Shown here: positions 1,423-55,381 of the stretch, piece after piece
How positions within the stretch are numbered: the stretch's first letter is position 1
Layout: each line of letters begins with the position of its first letter
Source of the DNA: a virus
Virus record (IMG/VR): IMGVR_UViG_3300000302_000006
Span: 1 to 55,381 of that record
Direction: 5' to 3' (one strand)
DNA: 55,381 bases
Position numbers and translations under genes: made by a program
Notes under the pieces: generated by a model
What the model was told of the DNA's origin: nothing
What the model saw: only the letters and a program-made list of their open reading frames with translations
Database searches by the model: none

Positions 1423-3192
1423 ATGTCAAGTCAATATCTTCAGGATAAAGTTTCCGAATATGAAAATTACATAGCGAGAAAAGGCGTTGATGAGTCTGTG
1501 ATTGATGCTATGGCAGATGCGGTTAAATGGGCGATTTACAAAGAAAATGAAATAGAATATGGGCTTAAAGTTTCTGCAAGAGCAAAAGAACTAATTGAGA
1601 GCTTCGTTTTGACTAATTCAGGTGGAACTTTGGACGATTTAGAAGTATACGCCGCAGAAAACGATACGGAATACAAGATTGTGAATGATTATTATGCAAT
1701 TTTACAGTGCGAATCTCCGTATTTAGTCGATAGCTTTTTTAGATACATAGAAGCAGACGAGAAAGACCCGTATAAACGATTTTATTTTCCGAGAAGAAAA
1801 GTTTTAAAGCCTGTTGTGTCTGCGTATCAAGAAATTTATGATGGAAAACTTGATTTTTTATCAGTTTCGCAGCCTAAAAGAACTGGAAAAACCACCGGGG
1901 GATTAAAACTTGCTCAAATGATGGGAGGGCGTGATCCTGACGGAAGTATTTTTGCAGTCGGAAAGGGAGAAGGACTCGTAAAACGATTCTACGGCGGGCT
2001 TTTGCAATCGTTTGAAAATGAAAGTACATATCAAAGGTTTCTTTCTGTATTTCCAGAAGCAAAAAAAATCGGAGAAAAAGACTACAAAAGTGCAGAGAAC
2101 TTATCAATAGATCTGAAAAGAAAAAATATTTTTCCGACATATACTTGTCGTCCGATTGACGGCGCGATTGTTGGATGTACAGAAGCAAATGTGCTTGTTT
2201 ACATTGATGACTGTGTAAAAAATCACGAAGAGGCAAGGAACAGGGATAGACTAGAGTTTCTTTGCGAAAAAGTGACAGATGATGTTCTCGGAAGAAGATT
2301 AGAGGGAACGCCGATTATTATACAGGGTACAAAATATAGTCTTTACGACCCGATTACAGCACTTCAAGCAAAAGCGGACGAACTGGGATGGCGTTGGAAA
2401 GAAGTTGCTATTCCCGCTCTCGACCCCATTTCTGATGAAAGCAACTGGGAAATTTACAGAAAAGATAAAAAAGGTCTCAGGAAAATCTTTACGACTGATT
2501 ACTACAGAAAAGAGAGAATGCTTGTATCTGAGGAAACATGGGCGGCAGAGTTTCAGCAAGAGCCTTATGAAGCAAAAGGCAGAATGTTTCCAGAAAAAGA
2601 ACTTAATTATTTTGAAGAGCTTCCTGTTGACCGAGAACCAGATGCAATTATGGCAGCTTGCGACAGCGCGGATAAGGGAGAAGATAGCTGTTCAATGCCG
2701 GTTGGATATGTGTATGGAAACGAAGTTTACATTGTTGATGTTGTTTTTGACAACGCAGGAGTACAGTTTACCAAACCTGAATGTGCAAATATGTTGATAA
2801 AACACAATGTAAAAACGGTTACGTTTGAGAGTAATAGCGCAGGAGAGTATTTTGGACGAGATGTAATGGATATTGTAAAAACACAGGGCGGAAGATGTAG
2901 TGCAAGATATAAATTCAACTGTGCGAACAAAATTACAAGAATGGAAAATGCAAGGGATAATATTATCAGGGACTATTATTTCAGAGATTTCAAAAAAATG
3001 GACAGAAACAGTCAGTATTACAAGTTTATGAAAGAACTGACTACCATGACACGAACTGGAAAAGTAAAACATGATGATGCGCCGGATTCCATTTCTTTGT
3101 TTGAAAATGAAATGCGAACAGGCACTGTTGCAAGAGTAGAAGCCGTACGAAACCCATTTAGAAGCCATAACGCAGGATATTATGGGAGGTAA
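1423..3192 (+). CDS. terL: terminase large subunit
   Basis: 589 aa. Walker A-like SQPKRTGKTT, Walker B-like VLVYIDD, C-terminal acidic nuclease-type region. Lies upstream of the portal gene. Confidence 0.9.
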   Translation: MSSQYLQDKVSEYENYIARKGVDESVIDAMADAVKWAIYKENEIEYGLKVSARAKELIESFVLTNSGGTLDDLEVYAAENDTEYKIVNDYYAILQCESPYLVDSFFRYIEADEKDPYKRFYFPRRKVLKPVVSAYQEIYDGKLDFLSVSQPKRTGKTTGGLKLAQMMGGRDPDGSIFAVGKGEGLVKRFYGGLLQSFENESTYQRFLSVFPEAKKIGEKDYKSAENLSIDLKRKNIFPTYTCRPIDGAIVGCTEANVLVYIDDCVKNHEEARNRDRLEFLCEKVTDDVLGRRLEGTPIIIQGTKYSLYDPITALQAKADELGWRWKEVAIPALDPISDESNWEIYRKDKKGLRKIFTTDYYRKERMLVSEETWAAEFQQEPYEAKGRMFPEKELNYFEELPVDREPDAIMAACDSADKGEDSCSMPVGYVYGNEVYIVDVVFDNAGVQFTKPECANMLIKHNVKTVTFESNSAGEYFGRDVMDIVKTQGGRCSARYKFNCANKITRMENARDNIIRDYYFRDFKKMDRNSQYYKFMKELTTMTRTGKVKHDDAPDSISLFENEMRTGTVARVEAVRNPFRSHNAGYYGR

Positions 3193-38187: not shown

Positions 38188-38718
38188 ATGAATGGTAGCA
38201 ACTACATAAAAATCAACCGCAGCATACTTGACTGGGAGTGGTATCTGGACAACAACACGAAAGTCCTGTTCCTGCACATGATGTTGAAAGCAAATTGGAA
38301 AAAAGGAAAGTTTAAAGGCGTTGACATTGAACGTGGCTCGTTCGCATCTTCATACCAGAGTCTTTCCTCTGAAACAGGCCTTTCGGTACAGAACATCAGA
38401 ACGAGCATTAGAAAGCTAAAATCAACAGGAGAAATAACAGTCACGAAGTACAGCAAATTCACTGTATTTACGGTAAATAATTACTGTGAATATCAAAAGT
38501 CCAACAAGGCACCTAACGCCGAACTAACAGGCGATCAACAGGCAACTAACAGTCAAGCAGCAACAATAGAAGAAGATAAGAAAGAAAGAAGTAAAGAAAT
38601 ATATAGTAAACGCTCTAAAGGAAAAGTCAGAGATAACAACAACTTTGAGCGTAGGAACTATGATATGGGCGAACTGGAAAGACAGTTAATGGAGGGACAA
38701 AACAATGAGCAAATTTGA
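38188..38718 (+). CDS. replication initiation / replisome organiser (winged-helix, DnaD-like)
   Basis: N-terminal pattern [14 protein letters not shown]...[34 protein letters not shown]. Confidence 0.6.
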
Positions 38719-39565
38719 AGTAGGAGATCTGATAAAAGGACTGCCAGAATCAAATAAAATATACGGAATTACAAATGAAGATATGACAAAAGGCGTGGTT
38801 CAGAAAGTCACAGCATACGAAATCGTTGTGAAGGTTCTTGAGCATAAGACGGGAAATTATGGAACGTTTGAAGTAGATCCCGATGTATTTGAAAAAATCG
38901 GACACCTCGAATCATTCGACAGAGAGAAATTCCTTGAATTGATGAAGAAAAGCAAGGCGAAGGCGGCAGAGTACCTGAGACGTGCCAACCTGAGCGGTGC
39001 CGACCTGAGCGATGCCAACCTGAGCGGTGCCGACCTGAGCGGTGCCAACCTGAGCGGTGCCAACCTGAGCGGTGCCGACCTGAGCGGTGCCGACCTGAGA
39101 CGTGCCAACCTGAGCGATGCCGACCTGAGCGGTGCCAACCTGAGCGATGCCGACCTGAGACGTGCCGACCTGAGCGATGCCGACCTGAGCGGTGCCAACC
39201 TGAGACGTACCGACCTGAGCGTATCTCAGGGATTGTTGGATGCGATCAACTACATGGAAGCACATTTTGAGCGGACGGATGAGGGATACATAGTATACAA
39301 ATCATTCAACGAAAATTACCATGCGCCGGAGACGTGGAAGATTGAACCAGGAGAGGTCATTGAAGAAACAGTTAATTGCGATAGAACAACAGGATGCGGA
39401 TGTGGAATCAATGTTGCACCGCTTGAATGGGTCCGTAGAACTGGATTTAATCAGCCGTACAAGCTTCTGATCCGTTGGGAGTGGCTGCCGGGTGTAGTCG
39501 TACCGTATAACACGGATGGAAAGATCAGATGCAGCAAGGCTCAGATACTGGAGGCGGTGGAATAA
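38705..39565 (+). CDS. pentapeptide-repeat protein with N- and C-terminal globular domains
   Basis: 16 consecutive A(N/D)LS(G/D)-type pentapeptides. Confidence 0.85.
38984..39223 (+). repeat. 16 tandem copies of a 15-bp unit (GCCRACCTGAGCGRT) encoding the pentapeptide repeats
   Basis: Read directly. The units are near-identical at nucleotide level. Confidence 0.9.
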
Positions 39566-42919: not shown

Positions 42920-43135
42920 ATGAGATTAGGCAAGTATTTGTCCGAATTGACTAAGCCAGAACTTGAAGAATTAAAAGACCTTTTGAATCTTTCGGATGAT
43001 GAAATGGTGATATTTGAAAAGCTGTCGAATGGGAAAAGTATTGAAGAAATTTCAGACAAGTTGAAAATGTCATCAAGGACAGTTCAAAGACGAATTACAA
43101 ATATTAAAAACAAACTAGAAAGGGTGATTGAATGA
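42920..43135 (+). CDS. sigma-70 region-4 / LuxR-type HTH regulator
   Basis: LSDDEMVIFEKLSNGKSIEEISDKLKMSSRTVQRRITNIKNKL. Confidence 0.65.
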   Translation: MRLGKYLSELTKPELEELKDLLNLSDDEMVIFEKLSNGKSIEEISDKLKMSSRTVQRRITNIKNKLERVIE

Positions 43136-43329
43136 CACAAAGTGTTCCAATATGGGAAAAAGTGACGCTGACAATCGAAGAAGCAAGCGAATATTCCAAC
43201 ATTGGCGAAAAATCAATCCGAGAAGCGTTGAAAAATCCGTCATGCCCTTTTGCTTTTTCTGTTGGCAGGAAGTCATTAATCAAACGTAAAGAATTTGATA
43301 ATTATATATCAAAGCATAGCGAACTGTGA
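43132..43329 (+). CDS. xis: excisionase (MerR-like HTH_17)
   Basis: LTIEEASEYSNIGEKSIREAL... Adjacent to int. Confidence 0.7.
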   Translation: MTQSVPIWEKVTLTIEEASEYSNIGEKSIREALKNPSCPFAFSVGRKSLIKRKEFDNYISKHSEL

Positions 43330-43380
43330 TTGAATTATAAGCCTTGTATGATATAATTGGCATACGAGGCTTTTCTTTTT
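43330..43380 (+). promoter_or_regulatory. 12-bp-stem terminator whose loop contains an extended -10 promoter (putative Pint)
   Basis: Stem 43339-50/43361-72 followed by a T-rich tract. TTGAAT 43330-35, TG 43349-50, TATAAT 43352-57. Confidence 0.55.
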
Positions 43381-43393
43381 AAGGAGTATCATT

Positions 43394-44584
43394 ATGGGAA
43401 AGGATTTGAAAGGAAAAGAACTTGGTGTAGGATTATCACAAAGAAAGGATGGTGTTTATCAGGCGAGATATATCGATAGATGGGGGAAAAGAAAAACCAT
43501 CTATGGTAAAAGTATAAGGGAATTGCGTAAAGAATTGTCGATAGCAATTTCCGAAAATGAAACATTCACAAGTGTTAGAGAAAAAGTAACACTGGACGAG
43601 TGGTTCAAACAATGGATGGAAGTATACAAAGAAAAAAGCATAAGACCAAATACAAAAAGAGAATATACATACATATATGAGAAGAATATCTCTCCGTATA
43701 TTGGCGGAAGATACTTAAATTCACTTGTAAAAACAGATGTGCAGCGGTTGATCGACACGGCGTATGATTTGGGGTATCAGTATGAACGCCAGAACAAAAT
43801 AAAAATAGTATTACGAGATATGCTACAAAGAGCTTTTGAAGATCATCTGGTATCTGGAAATCCTGTCAGCGGAATAAAGCTGAGATCAGACAAGACCATA
43901 AAGGCAAAGGCATTGGCTCTTGAAGAACAAAATGTATTTTTTGAATATTGCCGGAACACGTTTTATGACAATCTCTTTAATGTGGCAGTAAATACAGGAT
44001 TACGACCGGGAGAGCTATTTGCTCTTCAATTATCGGATATAGACATGGAGAATGGCTACATAGATGTAAATAAGACGCTTGTATATCAAAAGTATTTGAC
44101 AGATACTCGCAAGACATTTCACATGGAACCGCCAAAAACAAAGCAGAGTTACAGGAAAGTTCCAATCAACAGCGTGTGCCGAATATATCTGGAAAGACAG
44201 TTTGAATTAAAGAAAATTATATCAGAGAAACGGCCAAAGCAGCAAAACAATTATTTGTTTGTCACAAAATTTAATACGCCTTTAAATTCTGTTATTTACT
44301 CAGATGCGATCAAGTCGGTTATTCGTCAAATAAACCTTATGAGATCAAAGGAGAATCAGTTTCCGGTATTCAGCGGTCATACGTTTAGGCATACGTTTGC
44401 GACAAGGTGCTTTGAAAATGGTATAGAGCCGAAAGTGGTTCAGTCATATTTAGGTCATGCCAGTTTGAAAATGACAATGGATTTGTACACTCATGTTACG
44501 GATGCTAAATCATCCTATGATATTGAAAAAATCGTGCCAGACTTCAATGATAATTTGATTGATTTCAGGTCAAAAATATCATAA
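43394..44584 (+). CDS. int: tyrosine integrase
   Basis: 396 aa. SGHTFRHTFATRCF...LGHASLKMTMDLYTHV (R-H-R-Y catalytic pattern). Confidence 0.9.
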   Translation: MGKDLKGKELGVGLSQRKDGVYQARYIDRWGKRKTIYGKSIRELRKELSIAISENETFTSVREKVTLDEWFKQWMEVYKEKSIRPNTKREYTYIYEKNISPYIGGRYLNSLVKTDVQRLIDTAYDLGYQYERQNKIKIVLRDMLQRAFEDHLVSGNPVSGIKLRSDKTIKAKALALEEQNVFFEYCRNTFYDNLFNVAVNTGLRPGELFALQLSDIDMENGYIDVNKTLVYQKYLTDTRKTFHMEPPKTKQSYRKVPINSVCRIYLERQFELKKIISEKRPKQQNNYLFVTKFNTPLNSVIYSDAIKSVIRQINLMRSKENQFPVFSGHTFRHTFATRCFENGIEPKVVQSYLGHASLKMTMDLYTHVTDAKSSYDIEKIVPDFNDNLIDFRSKIS

Positions 44585-49772: not shown

Positions 49773-49846
49773 TAGCATAGTTTAATAATTTAAAAATATT
49801 TTCATTTCATTATTGTATAGGAATAAAAGCAAAACACGGAAAGCTG

Positions 49847-49875
49847 TTGACGCATAGTTTAATAAATGCTATACT
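49847..49875 (+). promoter_or_regulatory. consensus promoter (TTGACG-17-TATACT) with GCATAGTTTAATAA box in the spacer
   Basis: Box at 49852-65. Confidence 0.7.
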
Positions 49876-49903
49876 TATATAAAATAACAAGGGAGGTTTG
49901 AAA

Positions 49904-50098
49904 ATGGCTTTTAAAGATAAAGGGAAGGAACTGTCATATATTGCACAATATCAGAAAGATAATTATGATCGCATTACAGTAATGGCTCCGAAGGGAACAA
50001 AAGACGAGATTAAGAAAGCGGCAGAGCTTAAGGGGATGAAAATTTCCGGGTTTGTTCTGGATGCAGTGCAGAAAGAATTGGAAAGAATGAAAGAATAG
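49904..50098 (+). CDS. ribbon-helix-helix (Arc/CopG-like) protein
   Basis: ITVMAPKGTKDEIKKAAELKGMKISGFVLDAVQKELERM. GGGAGG SD. Confidence 0.65.
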   Translation: MAFKDKGKELSYIAQYQKDNYDRITVMAPKGTKDEIKKAAELKGMKISGFVLDAVQKELERMKE

Positions 50099-50112
50099 TT
50101 TAATAAAAACTA

Positions 50113-50141
50113 TTGACGCATAGTTTAATAAGTGCTACAAT
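50113..50141 (+). promoter_or_regulatory. consensus promoter (TTGACG-17-TACAAT) with GCATAGTTTAATAA box in the spacer
   Basis: Box at 50118-31. A partial fifth box lies at 50095-50106. Confidence 0.7.
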
Positions 50142-50166
50142 ATAATCACAGAAAGGTGGTTATATT

Positions 50167-50748
50167 ATGCGTAAGACCGCGAAACAAATTTTTTCAATTC
50201 CTAAAATTCAGAAAGTAGGAATTTATGCGATAAGGAATAAGAAAACTAACAAATATTATATTGGTTCTAGCGTTAATGTTTATAGCAGAATGCTTACACA
50301 TGCCAGAAATATAATTCGTTTCGGTGGAATTAATGAGACTATGGCTAAAGATATAAACGGGAAAAGAGATTTTAAAAATATTGAGTTTATTGTATTAAAA
50401 ACCTTCGAAGATGGAACTATAACAGACAAACAATTAAGGGAAGAAGAGTCAGAAATGTTTAAAAAATATGATTCCATGAATAACGGTTATAATATACAAT
50501 ACACTCATGGAAATGGTAAATTTAACCCAGACGAAAAACTATTCTGCAAGCCTATAACGAATAAATCTAAGGAACAAAATTTTGATGAATTTGTCTTAAG
50601 ACTCCCAGAAGGATCAAAGGAAATTATGGATCAACTTCATGTTGTAAATTATAATGCTTTTATTTACGACATTGTGATTAAAGAATTAAACAGAATTCAG
50701 ACACTAAGAGTAATAGCAGAACAGGCAGAGAACAACCCCGGCGAATAA
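50167..50748 (+). CDS. GIY-YIG nuclease fused to a C-terminal RHH-like domain
   Basis: VGIYAIRNKKTNKYYIGSSVNVYSRMLTH. The C-terminal FVLRLPEGSKEIMDQL...IVIKELNRI aligns by eye to the upstream RHH protein. Confidence 0.7.
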   Translation: MRKTAKQIFSIPKIQKVGIYAIRNKKTNKYYIGSSVNVYSRMLTHARNIIRFGGINETMAKDINGKRDFKNIEFIVLKTFEDGTITDKQLREEESEMFKKYDSMNNGYNIQYTHGNGKFNPDEKLFCKPITNKSKEQNFDEFVLRLPEGSKEIMDQLHVVNYNAFIYDIVIKELNRIQTLRVIAEQAENNPGE

Positions 50749-50762
50749 CCGGGGATTTTTTA
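50736..50762 (+). terminator. rho-independent terminator
   Basis: CCCCGG-7nt-CCGGGG followed by a T-tract. The stop codon lies in the loop. Confidence 0.75.
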
Positions 50763-50770
50763 TTGACAAT

Positions 50771-51015
50771 TAACAGGCAAATAACAGGCACATTAACAAA
50801 GTAACAATGTCCGATAAACCGCGTAAATACGCCACTTTCCAGGTATTTACGAATTAATCTAACACACCGCTAACAAGCAACCTAACAAGGTAACTAACAT
50901 AGTAATCAACAGGGTAAAAATTGACAGAAAAGCCCGTAAATACGCGGTTTTTGATGGTTGCAATCAGTACAGCTAACAGGGTAATTAACACAGTTTCTAA
51001 CACTCAACTAACAGG
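50771..51015 (+). repeat. array of at least 12 same-orientation TAACA(G/A/C) boxes in three clusters with 11-12 bp phasing
   Basis: Box starts at 50771, 50782, 50794, 50802, 50860, 50871, 50883, 50895 (plus CAACA at 50907), 50974, 50986, 50998 and 51009. Confidence 0.85.
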
Positions 51016-51106
51016 CTCTATTAATATATATTATATATAATATAGTCTATTAAAAGAAGAAGAAGGAAAGAATATATAATCTATTCGTTACACTCATAGA
51101 TTATAT

Positions 51107-51140
51107 TACGCGCGTGCGCGCGTGTATGTCTGTGCGTGTA
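51107..51140. repeat. alternating purine-pyrimidine (CG/TG) tract, Z-DNA-prone, next to a very AT-rich block (51020-51105)
   Basis: tacgcgcgtgcgcgcgtgtatgt (23 nt of perfect alternation) plus tgtgcgtgta. Confidence 0.8.
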
Positions 51141-51162
51141 ATTTTTATTTACAATTTTTTTA

Positions 51163-51191
51163 TTGACAGATAATCAAATCAGGTGTATTGT
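51163..51191 (+). promoter_or_regulatory. candidate late promoter
   Basis: TTGACA, 17 nt, TATTGT, with TG immediately upstream. The -10 is weak. Confidence 0.4.
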
Positions 51192-51254
51192 ATAGCCAGA
51201 TAAGTTAATACGATTAAATCCGCCCAGATCCCGGCGGTGTGAAAAGAGACTCGG

Positions 51255-51288
51255 GAGGTCTACACAATTATGTGTGGGCCTCTTTTTT
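51255..51288 (+). terminator. strong rho-independent terminator in the terS leader
   Basis: 12-bp stem GAGGTCTACACA/TGTGTGGGCCTC, loop ATTA, T6. Confidence 0.8.
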
Positions 51289-51312
51289 ATTACAGACAAG
51301 GAGGTGCAGACC

Positions 51313-51951
51313 GTGGCAGAGGTTGAAAAGATAGAAGCGGATCAGGTCGAAGTATTTGATAACAAGATCGATGAAGCTCTGGCTATGTTCTGCGAATACC
51401 AGGGAATAAAGGATATTAGGAGAGAGAGTCAAAGTGTTTGGAATGCTGCATTGATGTATATTAGACGTTATGTATTTCCTACACCTGATGTACTTAAAAG
51501 AGATAAGCCTTTAGATGGATATAGTAATAATAATTATAATAATCAATACAGTAATCTTAATAATACTAACTGTAACAGTTATGATACAGATTTGGTAAAT
51601 AGTGTATGTGATTATTATATATACATTTGCAATTTATACGATAAAGGAGTAACTATAACAGGGTTTTGTAAATTAACAGGGATAAGTGAAACAGTAATAT
51701 ATGAGTGGGGACATGATGACAGAAAACTAAGTCAATCCAGTTCGGAGATTTACAAAAAATTATCAAGAGAATATGAGAATAGTGCCGAATCTAAGCTGTG
51801 GGGTAATAAAAATCCGGTTGCAGTCATGGCGATTCTAAACAAGCGATTTGGCTGGAATCTCCCCGGAGTCAGCAAGGAGCAAGCGATAAAAGCCCCGATC
51901 ACATCAGACAAACTGCCGGATTTAACGCAGCAGATTGAGAAGAAAGATTGA
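51313..51951 (+). CDS. terS: terminase small subunit (gp3-packaging-type)
   Basis: GTG start 8 nt after AAGGAGG. ITGFCKLTGISETVIYEW...NPVAVMAILNKRFGW matches the HTH plus '..IF.LKN.FGW' TerS pattern. Asn/Tyr-rich linker. Confidence 0.65.
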   Translation: MAEVEKIEADQVEVFDNKIDEALAMFCEYQGIKDIRRESQSVWNAALMYIRRYVFPTPDVLKRDKPLDGYSNNNYNNQYSNLNNTNCNSYDTDLVNSVCDYYIYICNLYDKGVTITGFCKLTGISETVIYEWGHDDRKLSQSSSEIYKKLSREYENSAESKLWGNKNPVAVMAILNKRFGWNLPGVSKEQAIKAPITSDKLPDLTQQIEKKD

Positions 51952-52184
51952 TGTATTTTAATTCATATAGCCCATAATACAAGATATAGTATTATAGACA
52001 ATGGAAACACGACATATTGATTTAATCTATACAGAAAATAAGTGCTTGTCGTATAGATTGAATATTTAATATATTGTCAGATAATTAATGGCATTGACGG
52101 GGTAGGGGTCTGAGAGAATCGCCACACGAGCCTAACTTAGTCCCCCGAATATTCTCAAAAATAAAAAGGGAGGTTCCGTAGGAG

Positions 52185-52370
52185 ATGAACCTATTACGAG
52201 TTAAATCTACGTTCGGGATATTGATTCGCAAAACAAGAAGAATGTATCTCTTTCAGTTCTCTTTAAAAGAACCGTGGCTAACACCTAAGTGCGACAGACA
52301 TTACGGGCACAACAAAGACATTGTTTTGTATGGGTGGTTGTTTTGCTACTTCGGTTACACGGATTTATAA
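52185..52370 (+). CDS. hypothetical (61 aa)
   Basis: ORF with GGGAGG upstream. Uncertain. Confidence 0.35.
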   Translation: MNLLRVKSTFGILIRKTRRMYLFQFSLKEPWLTPKCDRHYGHNKDIVLYGWLFCYFGYTDL

Positions 52371-52396
52371 AAAGCCCATTTTGCATGGAGGATGAC

Positions 52397-52585
52397 ATGA
52401 TTGATAGCGGAGTATCCACAGAGAAATTAGGAAAAGCCATTTCGGAGCATATGAGACATATGTCTCCAATATTGAAGCAGGATATAGAGCTTGTGAAAAT
52501 GAACCCAAATCTATCATTTATCCAAAAGCTAATTATCACCAGAAAAATGAAACGTATAAGGCGAAAAATGAATAGGAATTGTTGA
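52397..52585 (+). CDS. hypothetical basic protein (62 aa)
   Basis: GGAGGA SD. Confidence 0.45.
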   Translation: MIDSGVSTEKLGKAISEHMRHMSPILKQDIELVKMNPNLSFIQKLIITRKMKRIRRKMNRNC

Positions 52586-52651
52586 TTATAGGGCATAGCG
52601 GTTTCTAAAAATTCCGAAAAAATAAAAAGGCTCTTCACGGGAGGTATCGCA

Positions 52652-53329
52652 ATGAATTTATTCTTTGATACAGAATTTACAGGACTTCACCAAAATACAA
52701 CTCTAATCAGTATCGGGATTGTGTCTGAGGATAACAAAAAGTTTTATGCGGAATTTGCTGATTTTGACATAGATCAATGTAATAACTGGATTAAGGAAAA
52801 TGTTCTGCGCAACTTATATCTTCCAAAACTTTCAGGAAAAGATACACTTAGAGAAACATGGGATGAAATAGACCGATGGAAAAAGAATGGATATTTAGTT
52901 GTGGATGGATGTACAGTGGCAAACAAGTGGTTTGGAAATGTTTATCCGACATGTAAGACAAATGGTAATGTAAAAGAAGTTGTTGGAGATAAGTCATGGG
53001 TAAATGCTTGTTTGCAAGATTGGCTCTCAGAATTTGACACCATTCAGTTTGTATCAGATGTTTGCCATTACGATTTCATTCTTCTGATTAACTTGATTAC
53101 ATACGGCGGAACGGCAATTGATTTACCTGAAACAATTTCGGCAGTGTGCCATGATATTAATCAGGATATTGCGAATCACTTCCGTGTATGTGATGCAAAA
53201 GCATTTGATATGAGTCGCGAACAGATTATGAATGATTTGTGCGGTTCTGAAAATGTTGTAACTGGTAATAAGCACAATAGTTTGTATGATGCGGAGGTTA
53301 TCAAAGCGATATGGGAGCAGATTCATTAA
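52652..53329 (+). CDS. DEDDh 3'-5' exonuclease (DnaQ/KapD-like)
   Basis: Exo I FFDTEFTG and Exo III HNSLYDAEV motifs. Confidence 0.75.
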   Translation: MNLFFDTEFTGLHQNTTLISIGIVSEDNKKFYAEFADFDIDQCNNWIKENVLRNLYLPKLSGKDTLRETWDEIDRWKKNGYLVVDGCTVANKWFGNVYPTCKTNGNVKEVVGDKSWVNACLQDWLSEFDTIQFVSDVCHYDFILLINLITYGGTAIDLPETISAVCHDINQDIANHFRVCDAKAFDMSREQIMNDLCGSENVVTGNKHNSLYDAEVIKAIWEQIH

Positions 53330-55308: not shown

Positions 55309-55381
55309 GGCTCCCTCGTCTAAAGGTGAGGACAAAGCCCTTTCAAGGCTTAAATGCACGGTTCAAATCCGGCGGGAGTCA
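55309..55381 (+). tRNA. tRNA-Glu (anticodon TTC), spans the circular junction
   Basis: Acceptor GGCTCCC/GGGAGTC (one G-U), D region TCGTCTAAAGGTGAGGACA similar to bacterial tRNA-Glu, anticodon stem AAGCC/GGCTT with loop CTTTCAA. The T-arm needs a bulged A (GC-A-CGG TTCAAAT CCGGC). Confidence 0.75.
55328..55381. repeat. Terminal direct repeat, identical to 1..54
   Basis: Read directly. Confidence 0.9.

Follow-up and report, generated by a model that had tools for sequence, protein, structure and literature searches.

Bacillus phage SPP1 has two described origin elements, oriL, which lies inside gene 38, and the intergenic oriR, located approximately 12–13 kb away on the circular map (PMC6316719, PMC3485210). 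Both comprise direct repeats together with an unwinding element rich in AT, both are bound by gp38, and gp38 bound to oriR has been proposed to stall replication forks and so to bring about the change to recombination-dependent sigma replication (PMC6316719, PMC3485210). The origin of phage lambda (ori) lies in gene O, with the iterons and an AT-rich tract in mid-gene, between the parts that encode the DNA-binding N-domain and the C-terminal part (PMC7466680). In this study, we analysed a viral DNA of 55,381 nucleotides (IMG/VR record IMGVR_UViG_3300000302_000006, positions 1 to 55,381; hereafter the window, meaning this whole stretch) and in particular an array of short TAACA repeats upstream of its putative small terminase subunit gene, terS. 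We favour, with a probability of about 0.7, the reading that this array is a second, intergenic origin-type element of the SPP1 oriR kind, bound by the initiator that the phage itself encodes. The array is read as origin-type because its box, its phasing, its gap motif and its purine/AT block all recur inside the initiator gene; the repeats are accordingly best regarded, from their sequence, as most likely binding sites of that initiator.

The array occupies a noncoding gap of 564 bp between a GIY-YIG endonuclease gene (50167–50748) and terS, and stop codons are present in all three forward frames of the region. It contains 13 (T/C)AACA boxes on one strand at 50771–51013 (12 exact TAACA and one CAACA), arranged in clusters of four, five and four. 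Box-to-box spacings are 11, 12 and 8 bp in the first cluster, 11, 12, 12 and 12 bp in the second and 12, 12 and 11 bp in the third, with 58 and 67 bp between clusters. An initial annotation of the window had described at least 12 boxes of one orientation in three clusters with a spacing of 11–12 bp, a description that holds and to which the thirteenth box, the CAACA at 50907, is added here. It had also seen no inverted copies, in agreement with the complete lack of minus-strand TAACA between 46931 and 53516. TAACA occurs 70 times on the plus strand of the whole contig, and the probability of finding at least 12 copies within 243 bp is 4e-16; a phased three-box pattern, expected 0.01 times, was found twice, both times in the array. 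Two hallmarks of iteron-type origins are thus present, namely helix-phased direct repeats in one orientation and an adjoining A+T-rich block, at 51014–51106, with an A+T content of 79.6% compared with 59.5% contig-wide. No DnaA box within one mismatch of the consensus was found in the array. The gap motif at 50822 and 50935, the 9-bp inverted repeat 50822–50830/50843–50851 and the 23+10 nt alternating tract at 51107–51140 all lie where they had been annotated, and the inverted repeat of the AT block was correctly placed but measures 11 nt (51074–51084/51096–51106) instead of 9 bp. The array ends 300 bp before the start of terS and 150 bp before a promoter at 51163.

The evidence that carries the origin-type reading comes from the gene at 38188–38718. 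Its product had been put forward as a putative initiator, and DnaD-like and O-like PHROG matches with a best E value of 1.9e-23 bear this out; Pfam adds a weak match to HTH_36. The predicted structure consists of a winged-helix N-domain (approximately residues 11–105), a disordered linker (residues 106–146) and a short helical C-terminal tail, with predicted local distance difference test (pLDDT) scores of 85–96 at residues 11–100 and below 50 at residues 106–146. A fold search with the N-domain returned generic winged-helix DNA binders only (E of about 0.01); a sequence search of the PDB with the initiator gave chance matches only and one of NCBIfam gave no match. Within the gene, boxes start at 38423 (CAACA) and 38435 (TAACA) and, after a gap of 67 bp, at 38502, 38514, 38525, 38536, 38547 and 38561, with spacings of 12 bp before the gap and 12, 11, 11, 11 and 14 bp after it. 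They are located in the DNA that encodes the end of the winged-helix domain and the disordered linker. The in-gene gap carries GTATTTACG at 38464–38472, which on the minus strand is the 9-mer CGTAAATAC of the intergenic array; of the six exact copies of this 9-mer in the contig, the gaps of the two arrays hold four. A purine/AT block (38565–38612) follows the boxes, and its purine stretch at 38581–38605 aligns with 51053–51078 with a score of 31, compared with 18.9 +/- 3.6 in shuffled sequences and reached by 4 of 500 shuffles, in what is low-complexity sequence. A position weight matrix built from the 13 intergenic boxes detects a single other plus-strand cluster in the contig, at 38435–38547. 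The two arrays are 12.3 kb apart and share their polarity, with the boxes first and the AT block downstream; the intergenic array has 13 boxes and the in-gene array eight. The window therefore contains both a repeat-plus-AT element within the initiator gene (38423–38612) and a second, noncoding element of like organization (50771–51106), the arrangement that characterizes an SPP1-type pair of origins.

Relatives of the initiator, encoded by at least 280 IMG/VR stretches, extend this correspondence between protein and box. Every distinct relative that was read has the same in-gene layout of one to three boxes, a 53–68-bp gap, five to seven boxes at 11–12 bp and a purine/AT block, and the sequence of the box is specific to lineages that differ in the recognition helix (Table 1). 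A scan of IMG/VR for phased TAACA patterns recovered the in-gene arrays of initiator relatives and, in addition, an unrelated contig (L085) in which a gene for an initiator homologue is immediately preceded by two consensus DnaA boxes, two clusters with ten TAACA boxes in all, and an AT block. This homologue of the N-domain has 145 amino acids, 27% identity (E = 1e-9) and the recognition helix STQNIRTCLELL. The boxes of L085 are, like those of the intergenic array, noncoding, and their repetition is therefore no by-product of a repetitive peptide. Taken at the level of sequence, the boxes appear to belong to the initiator family and not to TerS. Roughly a quarter of the IMG/VR contigs encoding the initiator family, among the matches listed, end within about 1–2 kb of the initiator gene (L201, L203, L205, L209, L213, L219, L224, L241, L250, L251, L253, L254, L264, L267 and others), a proportion above that expected if a 55-kb circle were cut at random, and the ENA contig behind L307 likewise ends near this gene. 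Such ends could stem from assembly-breaking repeats, from a coverage step at the origin or from real ends.

Table 1. Coordinates of features in the window, and recognition helices of the initiator family with the boxes of the corresponding genes
Feature	Position or locus	Strand	Remarks
Replication initiator (replisome-organiser, O-like, DnaD-like)	38188–38718	+	phrog_2514 at 1.9e-23 plus O-like PHROG families
In-gene origin	38423–38612	+	8 phased boxes, gap motif, purine/AT block
Terminator hairpin, bidirectional	50736–50754		Ends the upstream GIY-YIG gene; from a terminator scan of both strands; left mosaic joint of the element
Iteron cluster 1	50771–50806	+	4 TAACA: 50771, 50782, 50794, 50802
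Gap 1	50816–50851		CGTAAATAC at 50822–50830 (+), inverted copy at 50843–50851
Iteron cluster 2	50860–50911	+	5 boxes: 50860, 50871, 50883, 50895, 50907 (last is CAACA)
Gap 2 motif CGTAAATACGCGGTTT	50935–50950	+	Inverted partner of 50816–50831; includes CGTAAATAC at 50935
Iteron cluster 3	50974–51013	+	4 boxes: 50974, 50986, 50998, 51009
Candidate DNA-unwinding element	51014–51106		93 bp, 79.6% A+T; AT palindromes; purine-rich 51053–51078; 11-nt inverted repeat 51074–51084/51096–51106
Alternating purine-pyrimidine tract, G+C-rich	51107–51140		23-nt run 51107–51129, then 10 nt 51131–51140
Sigma-70-type promoter	51163–51191	+	TTGACA-17-TATTGT, towards terS
Leader, about 95 nt	about 51197–51292	+	Hairpin P1 51220–51224/51233–51237, then intrinsic terminator 51253–51284 and T run
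Putative small terminase subunit (P22 gp3-like), terS	51313–51951	+	GP3_package 23.4 bits, below the 29.4 cut-off
Recognition helices SVMEIRTSLKHL, TVQSVRTSITKL, SVQSARTAINHL	Several loci		In-gene box TAACA (and CAACA)
Recognition helix SVREVRTAISHL	L195		In-gene box CGACA
Recognition helix SVREVRTALKHL	L196, L197		In-gene box GACAA
Recognition helix TVDEIRTALKHL	L259		In-gene box TCCCA
Recognition helix SEQQIRTSLNRL	L271		In-gene box AACCA

Comparison with related genomes, which the initial annotation had suggested, showed the boxes to be conserved. The window was aligned with four phages whose TerS proteins are 75–93% identical to its own (L274, L275, L278 and L280), all of which keep the whole element from the terminator hairpin through terS. 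Among the positions of the array, one of 52 columns in the AACA cores and five of 65 in the full 5-mers are variable, compared with 59 of 183 at non-box positions (Fisher p = 1e-6 for the cores and 5e-5 for the 5-mers). Metagenome contigs aligned to the region carry substitutions and indels in the spacers, and within the boxes only the first T changes, to C. This pattern indicates that selection acts on the array through its boxes. The idea that the array descends, as a decayed pseudogene, from the linker part of the initiator gene was considered and rejected, since conservation of the box cores far exceeds that of the spacers. For the three CGTAAATAC-type copies conservation is no higher than for the spacers, and they are treated here as an accessory feature. 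The gene upstream of the element varies, from GIY-YIG in the window through a ParE-like gene and others in L275 to unrelated small genes in L274, L278 and L280; the GIY-YIG gene, homing-endonuclease-like, stands directly upstream of the array in the window phage only. Relatives conserve the terminator hairpin despite their different upstream genes; in L275 its loop is inverted, on account of which the hairpin is read as a recombination joint.

We propose that the winged-helix N-domain of the initiator would bind (T/C)AACA(G/A)G boxes on one face of the helix, at intervals of 11–12 bp and in clusters of four, five and four, and that cooperative binding would wrap the DNA into an O-some-like complex. 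Strain would then pass to the adjoining 93-bp block of 80% A+T, which would melt and allow the host replisome to load. As an alternative to this last step, and as put forward for SPP1 oriR, the tightly bound complex may stall forks arriving from the in-gene origin 12.3 kb upstream; such stalling, shortly before the late promoter and terS, might bring about a RecT-dependent change to the synthesis of concatemers. The phage encodes a recombination module of an SbcC-like ATPase, RecT and a metallo-hydrolase, together with a 78-amino-acid open reading frame with a weak, sub-threshold SSB match, a gene content that fits a recombination-dependent mode, as such a mode would need.

Several observations weigh against an initiator-bound second origin. 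The array stays with terS in the close relatives while the upstream gene changes, a linkage that a packaging site (pac) would also show, and among the five array-bearing phages it is only in the window that initiator and array were read together. Other loci with both were sought through a 71-amino-acid GerE-like protein, the initiator homologues P0122 and P0126 and the DUF551-like P0242, and these searches led to other elements or to loci ending short. In relatives from the human gut whose initiators are of the TAACA type, terS is not preceded by a second array, and a TAACA-type initiator therefore does not require one. Neither a helicase nor a loader gene was found; the position next to the initiator gene, at which one would expect a helicase loader, is taken by the gene for a 286-amino-acid pentapeptide-repeat protein (38705–39565), whose start overlaps the end of the initiator gene. 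Finally, the window initiator is a short form of 176 amino acids and lacks a domain of approximately 100 residues that is present in a 272-amino-acid relative (L309, 10001–10819). The two proteins are 93% identical in the N-part, their homology stops exactly after the in-gene AT block and their C-terminal tails (NNNFE.R.Y) are similar; short forms of this kind are frequent and make up clusters of 252, 105 and 15 sequences.

More distant relatives carry something else at the same place. In L001, L281, L282 and L283, with TerS identities of 67–69%, the slot is filled by a different cassette (cassette B; L001 1400–2130, L281 9096–9800 and L283 9088–9700). Its gene encodes a stand-alone winged-helix protein of 96–97 amino acids that matches replication-initiator and O-like PHROGs (E down to 6e-10) and, weakly and below threshold, the Pfam families HTH_36 and Phage_rep_O. 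The cassette has repeats of its own (ATATAAACATGTTATA; GGTGTAAAAAAATC) and a purine/AT block, followed by promoter and leader. A consensus DnaA box is present in the cassette of L001, L281 and L282, and no exact consensus DnaA box occurs anywhere in L283. Judged by these components, cassette B looks like an exchangeable origin-type cassette upstream of terS, and from its content we infer that, in both groups, the place ahead of the late promoter is occupied by cassettes of origin type. Searches for further copies of the window's own type of element (type A) were negative: blastn of 50100–52000 against 50,697 phage records found no match, a type-A-specific pattern had zero matches in IMG/VR, and a four-box pattern applied to GTDB genomes yielded no relative and 17 unrelated arrays, most of them in Prevotella. 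These unrelated phased CTAACA arrays occur in several Prevotella metagenome-assembled genomes (L290–L306), some of which have more than one locus; a further TAACA array, dense but irregular, is carried by the viral contig L138.

An initiator-bound array need not replicate DNA. It could titrate or handcuff the initiator, in the manner of incA of P1, or act as a fork barrier only. Such a role would suit the larger number of boxes in the intergenic array (13 compared with eight in the in-gene origin), the missing middle domain of the window initiator and the cassette-B relatives, which encode a bare DNA-binding domain without a loader part; a barrier role of this kind has also been proposed for oriR in the SPP1 literature. 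We consider it unlikely, since the boxes are followed by a complete AT-rich block with a purine stretch like that of the in-gene origin, which titration does not need, and since three of the four cassette-B loci have a DnaA box.

The alternating tract between the AT block and the promoter is G+C-rich, and its 23-nt run is the longest alternating purine-pyrimidine run in the contig. It contains the near-palindrome ACGCGCGTGCGCGCGT at 51108–51123, with 7-bp arms around a central TG. The tract is kept in all five phages of the alignment; the central dinucleotide of its first 16 nt varies between relatives (ACGCGCG-TG/TA/CG-CGCGCGT), and the palindrome is perfect in L275 and L280. Six of its seven variable columns are transitions that keep the alternation; elsewhere the corresponding ratio is 33:31 for the array and 19:29 for the part downstream (Fisher p = 0.057, no more than suggestive). 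The tract, located between the unwinding block and the promoter, could be a structure that responds to supercoiling. A more far-reaching scheme, which we put forward as speculative and rather improbable as a whole, would join these elements: this group of Lachnospiraceae phages would share a conserved slot upstream of the late promoter and terS for exchangeable origin-binding cassettes, type A with bare iterons for a distant initiator and type B with a stand-alone O-like winged-helix protein and its own repeats, three of the four type-B loci having a DnaA box as well. In this scheme, the main role of the bound complex would be to sense supercoiling and to form a programmed barrier to forks, by which the switch from theta to sigma replication is timed, and the conserved alternating GC tract would flip to Z-DNA or a cruciform to help open the adjacent late promoter, thereby coupling the state of replication to the expression of the packaging genes.

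The array could alternatively be a pac site, in which the phased boxes form the recognition array for the TerS ring and the first packaging cut is made here, as at pacL/pacR of SPP1 next to gene 1. Its position, directly upstream of terS, is that of a pac site, which lies within or next to this gene; the linkage of array and terS is kept in relatives with a different upstream gene, and a 54-nt self-overlap of the contig is compatible with a circularly permuted headful phage. The distribution of the boxes points elsewhere, as the same boxes form the in-gene origin 12 kb away and the origins of homologous initiators in unrelated phages, whereas none of 80 IMG/VR loci with TerS relatives (44–67% identity) has a TAACA array upstream of terS; over the wider range of 44–69% identity, about 75 TerS relatives are without such arrays. 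One contig, 3300045988_068285, has a TAACA-type in-gene origin (L099, L213) and other sequences upstream of its terS (L080). A pac site would be expected to covary with the DNA-binding domain of TerS. The helix-turn-helix reads KGVTITGFCKLTGISETVIYEWG in the window, KGVTISGFCYLTGISQYTVYEWG in L280 with the same array and KGVTISGFSKLTGIGESTIHEWG in L281 with the different cassette, so that the window differs from array-bearing L280 at least as much as from cassette-B L281, and the differences are independent of the type of array. The window TerS matches the P22 gp3 family only, several of its homologues carrying a precomputed PF16677 hit, and in this family pac lies inside the terS gene itself, which also counts against a pac site in the array. 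The initial annotation had given origin-like and pac-like readings equal weight; the former gained from the shared design of the initiator gene, the lineage-specific boxes and L085, while nothing beyond position was found for the latter. A function of the array as a DNA-packaging signal is thus not supported, and we judge it improbable, although the phage may have a pac site somewhere in or near this region.

The −35 hexamer of the promoter downstream of the array is the consensus, and its −10 hexamer agrees at four of six positions (10 of 12 for the two together); a promoter is kept at the same place in relatives even where the sequence is different (L278, L001). The leader that follows, itself followed by a ribosome-binding site and terS, folds with a z score of −3.75, and relatives with TerS identities as low as 67% retain it. 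Covariation is seen at two of the five P1 pairs (GC/CG/AU at one and CG/GC at the other) and in the terminator stem, and the 5′ arm of the terminator contains CGGGAG, to which the P1 loop UUCCCG is, as read from the sequence, complementary. Second copies of the leader are located upstream of Rha and Ant genes in L281 (1190–1275) and L283 (1001–1086). An Rfam search over 49800–52700 (E <= 1) gave no match, and a covariance model of the leader found no copies beyond close relatives. The leader is a feature separate from the array, and looks like an antitermination-type control of the packaging operon and a candidate regulatory RNA. In Firmicutes phages, late activators act immediately upstream of terS, and the array, which stops 150 bp short of a near-consensus promoter whose leader includes a terminator, might accordingly be an upstream activator or enhancer site of the promoter at 51163, where a transcription factor or the initiator couples late transcription to replication. 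We regard this as very improbable, as the boxes equal those of the in-gene origin and the distance, with an AT block and a GC tract in between, is unusual for an activator site; control more likely acts at the leader terminator because the promoter is already 10/12 consensus. A plasmid-type centromere like parC or tubC, whose clusters of 11–12-bp direct repeats bound by a winged-helix adaptor resemble the array and for which TubR and AspA appear among the best, non-significant, fold matches of the initiator N-domain, can be practically dismissed, given that the open reading frames scanned (not every small one) include no ParA, ParM or TubZ, that the phage has a Tn916-type integrase and excisionase and that the boxes lie in a canonical in-gene origin.

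The first 54 nt of the contig are identical to its last 54 nt (1–54 and 55328–55381), and the genome is therefore taken to be circular and closed, with a length of about 55.3 kb. The junction lies within a tRNA-Glu gene (55308–55382), and tRNA-Gln and tRNA-Thr genes lie at 244–508, between terS and the gene for a T7-like large terminase (1423–3192). The neighbourhood of the array encodes the GIY-YIG endonuclease, ribbon-helix-helix proteins and TerS. The phage is temperate; CI-like repressors are encoded on the minus strand near 26.6–28.1 kb, and an anti-repressor, a Tn916-type excisionase and an integrase are also encoded. The latter two form one module with the 71-amino-acid GerE-like regulator (42920–44584), and the integrase is positioned in mid-genome, between the replication genes and terS. 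The same module is found in a different chromosomal element with housekeeping genes on its flanks (L284, 8123–9787), its GerE-like regulator being 100% identical to that of the window. Strong Shine-Dalgarno sequences suggest a Firmicutes host, and the genomes in which initiator homologues were found ([Ruminococcus] lactaris, Lachnoclostridium and Kineothrix) suggest, more narrowly, one of the Lachnospiraceae. Sequence words near-identical to the window come mostly from chicken and other bird gut metagenomes.

These results provide a concrete replication map for an uncultured 55-kb temperate phage of chicken-gut Lachnospiraceae, with its initiator, an in-gene origin and a second, intergenic origin-type array, and they suggest that the dual-origin layout of SPP1 is not peculiar to that phage. 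The lineage-specific pairs of recognition helix and box in one initiator family (TAACA, CGACA, GACAA, TCCCA and AACCA) constitute a ready data set on the evolution of protein–DNA specificity. For annotation, a repeat array next to terS should not be named pac from its position alone.

In comparison with known systems, the array shares with the pac sites of SPP1 and P22 a position in or next to terS, and differs from them in that its boxes match those inside the initiator gene and show no covariation with the helix-turn-helix of TerS. The iteron plasmids (P1 incC/incA, pSC101 and RK2) similarly have helix-phased direct initiator sites beside an AT-rich region and extra arrays outside the origin, and DnaA boxes are added in L085 and in three of the four cassette-B relatives; the window array, in contrast, has no DnaA box within one mismatch and belongs to an integrating phage. 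The lambdoid ori in gene O (lambda and Stx phages) has the layout seen at 38423–38612, and O-like PHROGs match the initiator, but the lambda iterons are inverted repeats of 18–19 bp, whereas the window boxes are direct repeats of 5–7 bp at 11–12 bp, and lambda has no second intergenic copy. SPP1 offers a comparison by layout, the initiator being known here by its PHROG and Pfam matches. Its oriR lies among late morphogenesis genes and not next to terS, and the window array is distinguished by 13 boxes in three clusters and by the GC-rich alternating tract. The window nevertheless matches SPP1 in gene content, with RecT, a nuclease-like hydrolase and a weak SSB-like match, in having a second origin-type element at the edge of or within the late region, and in combining an in-gene origin with an intergenic copy, 12.3 kb apart in the window and approximately 12–13 kb apart in SPP1. 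The array is, in this sense, ordinary phage biology and most likely a further example of the known dual-origin kind.

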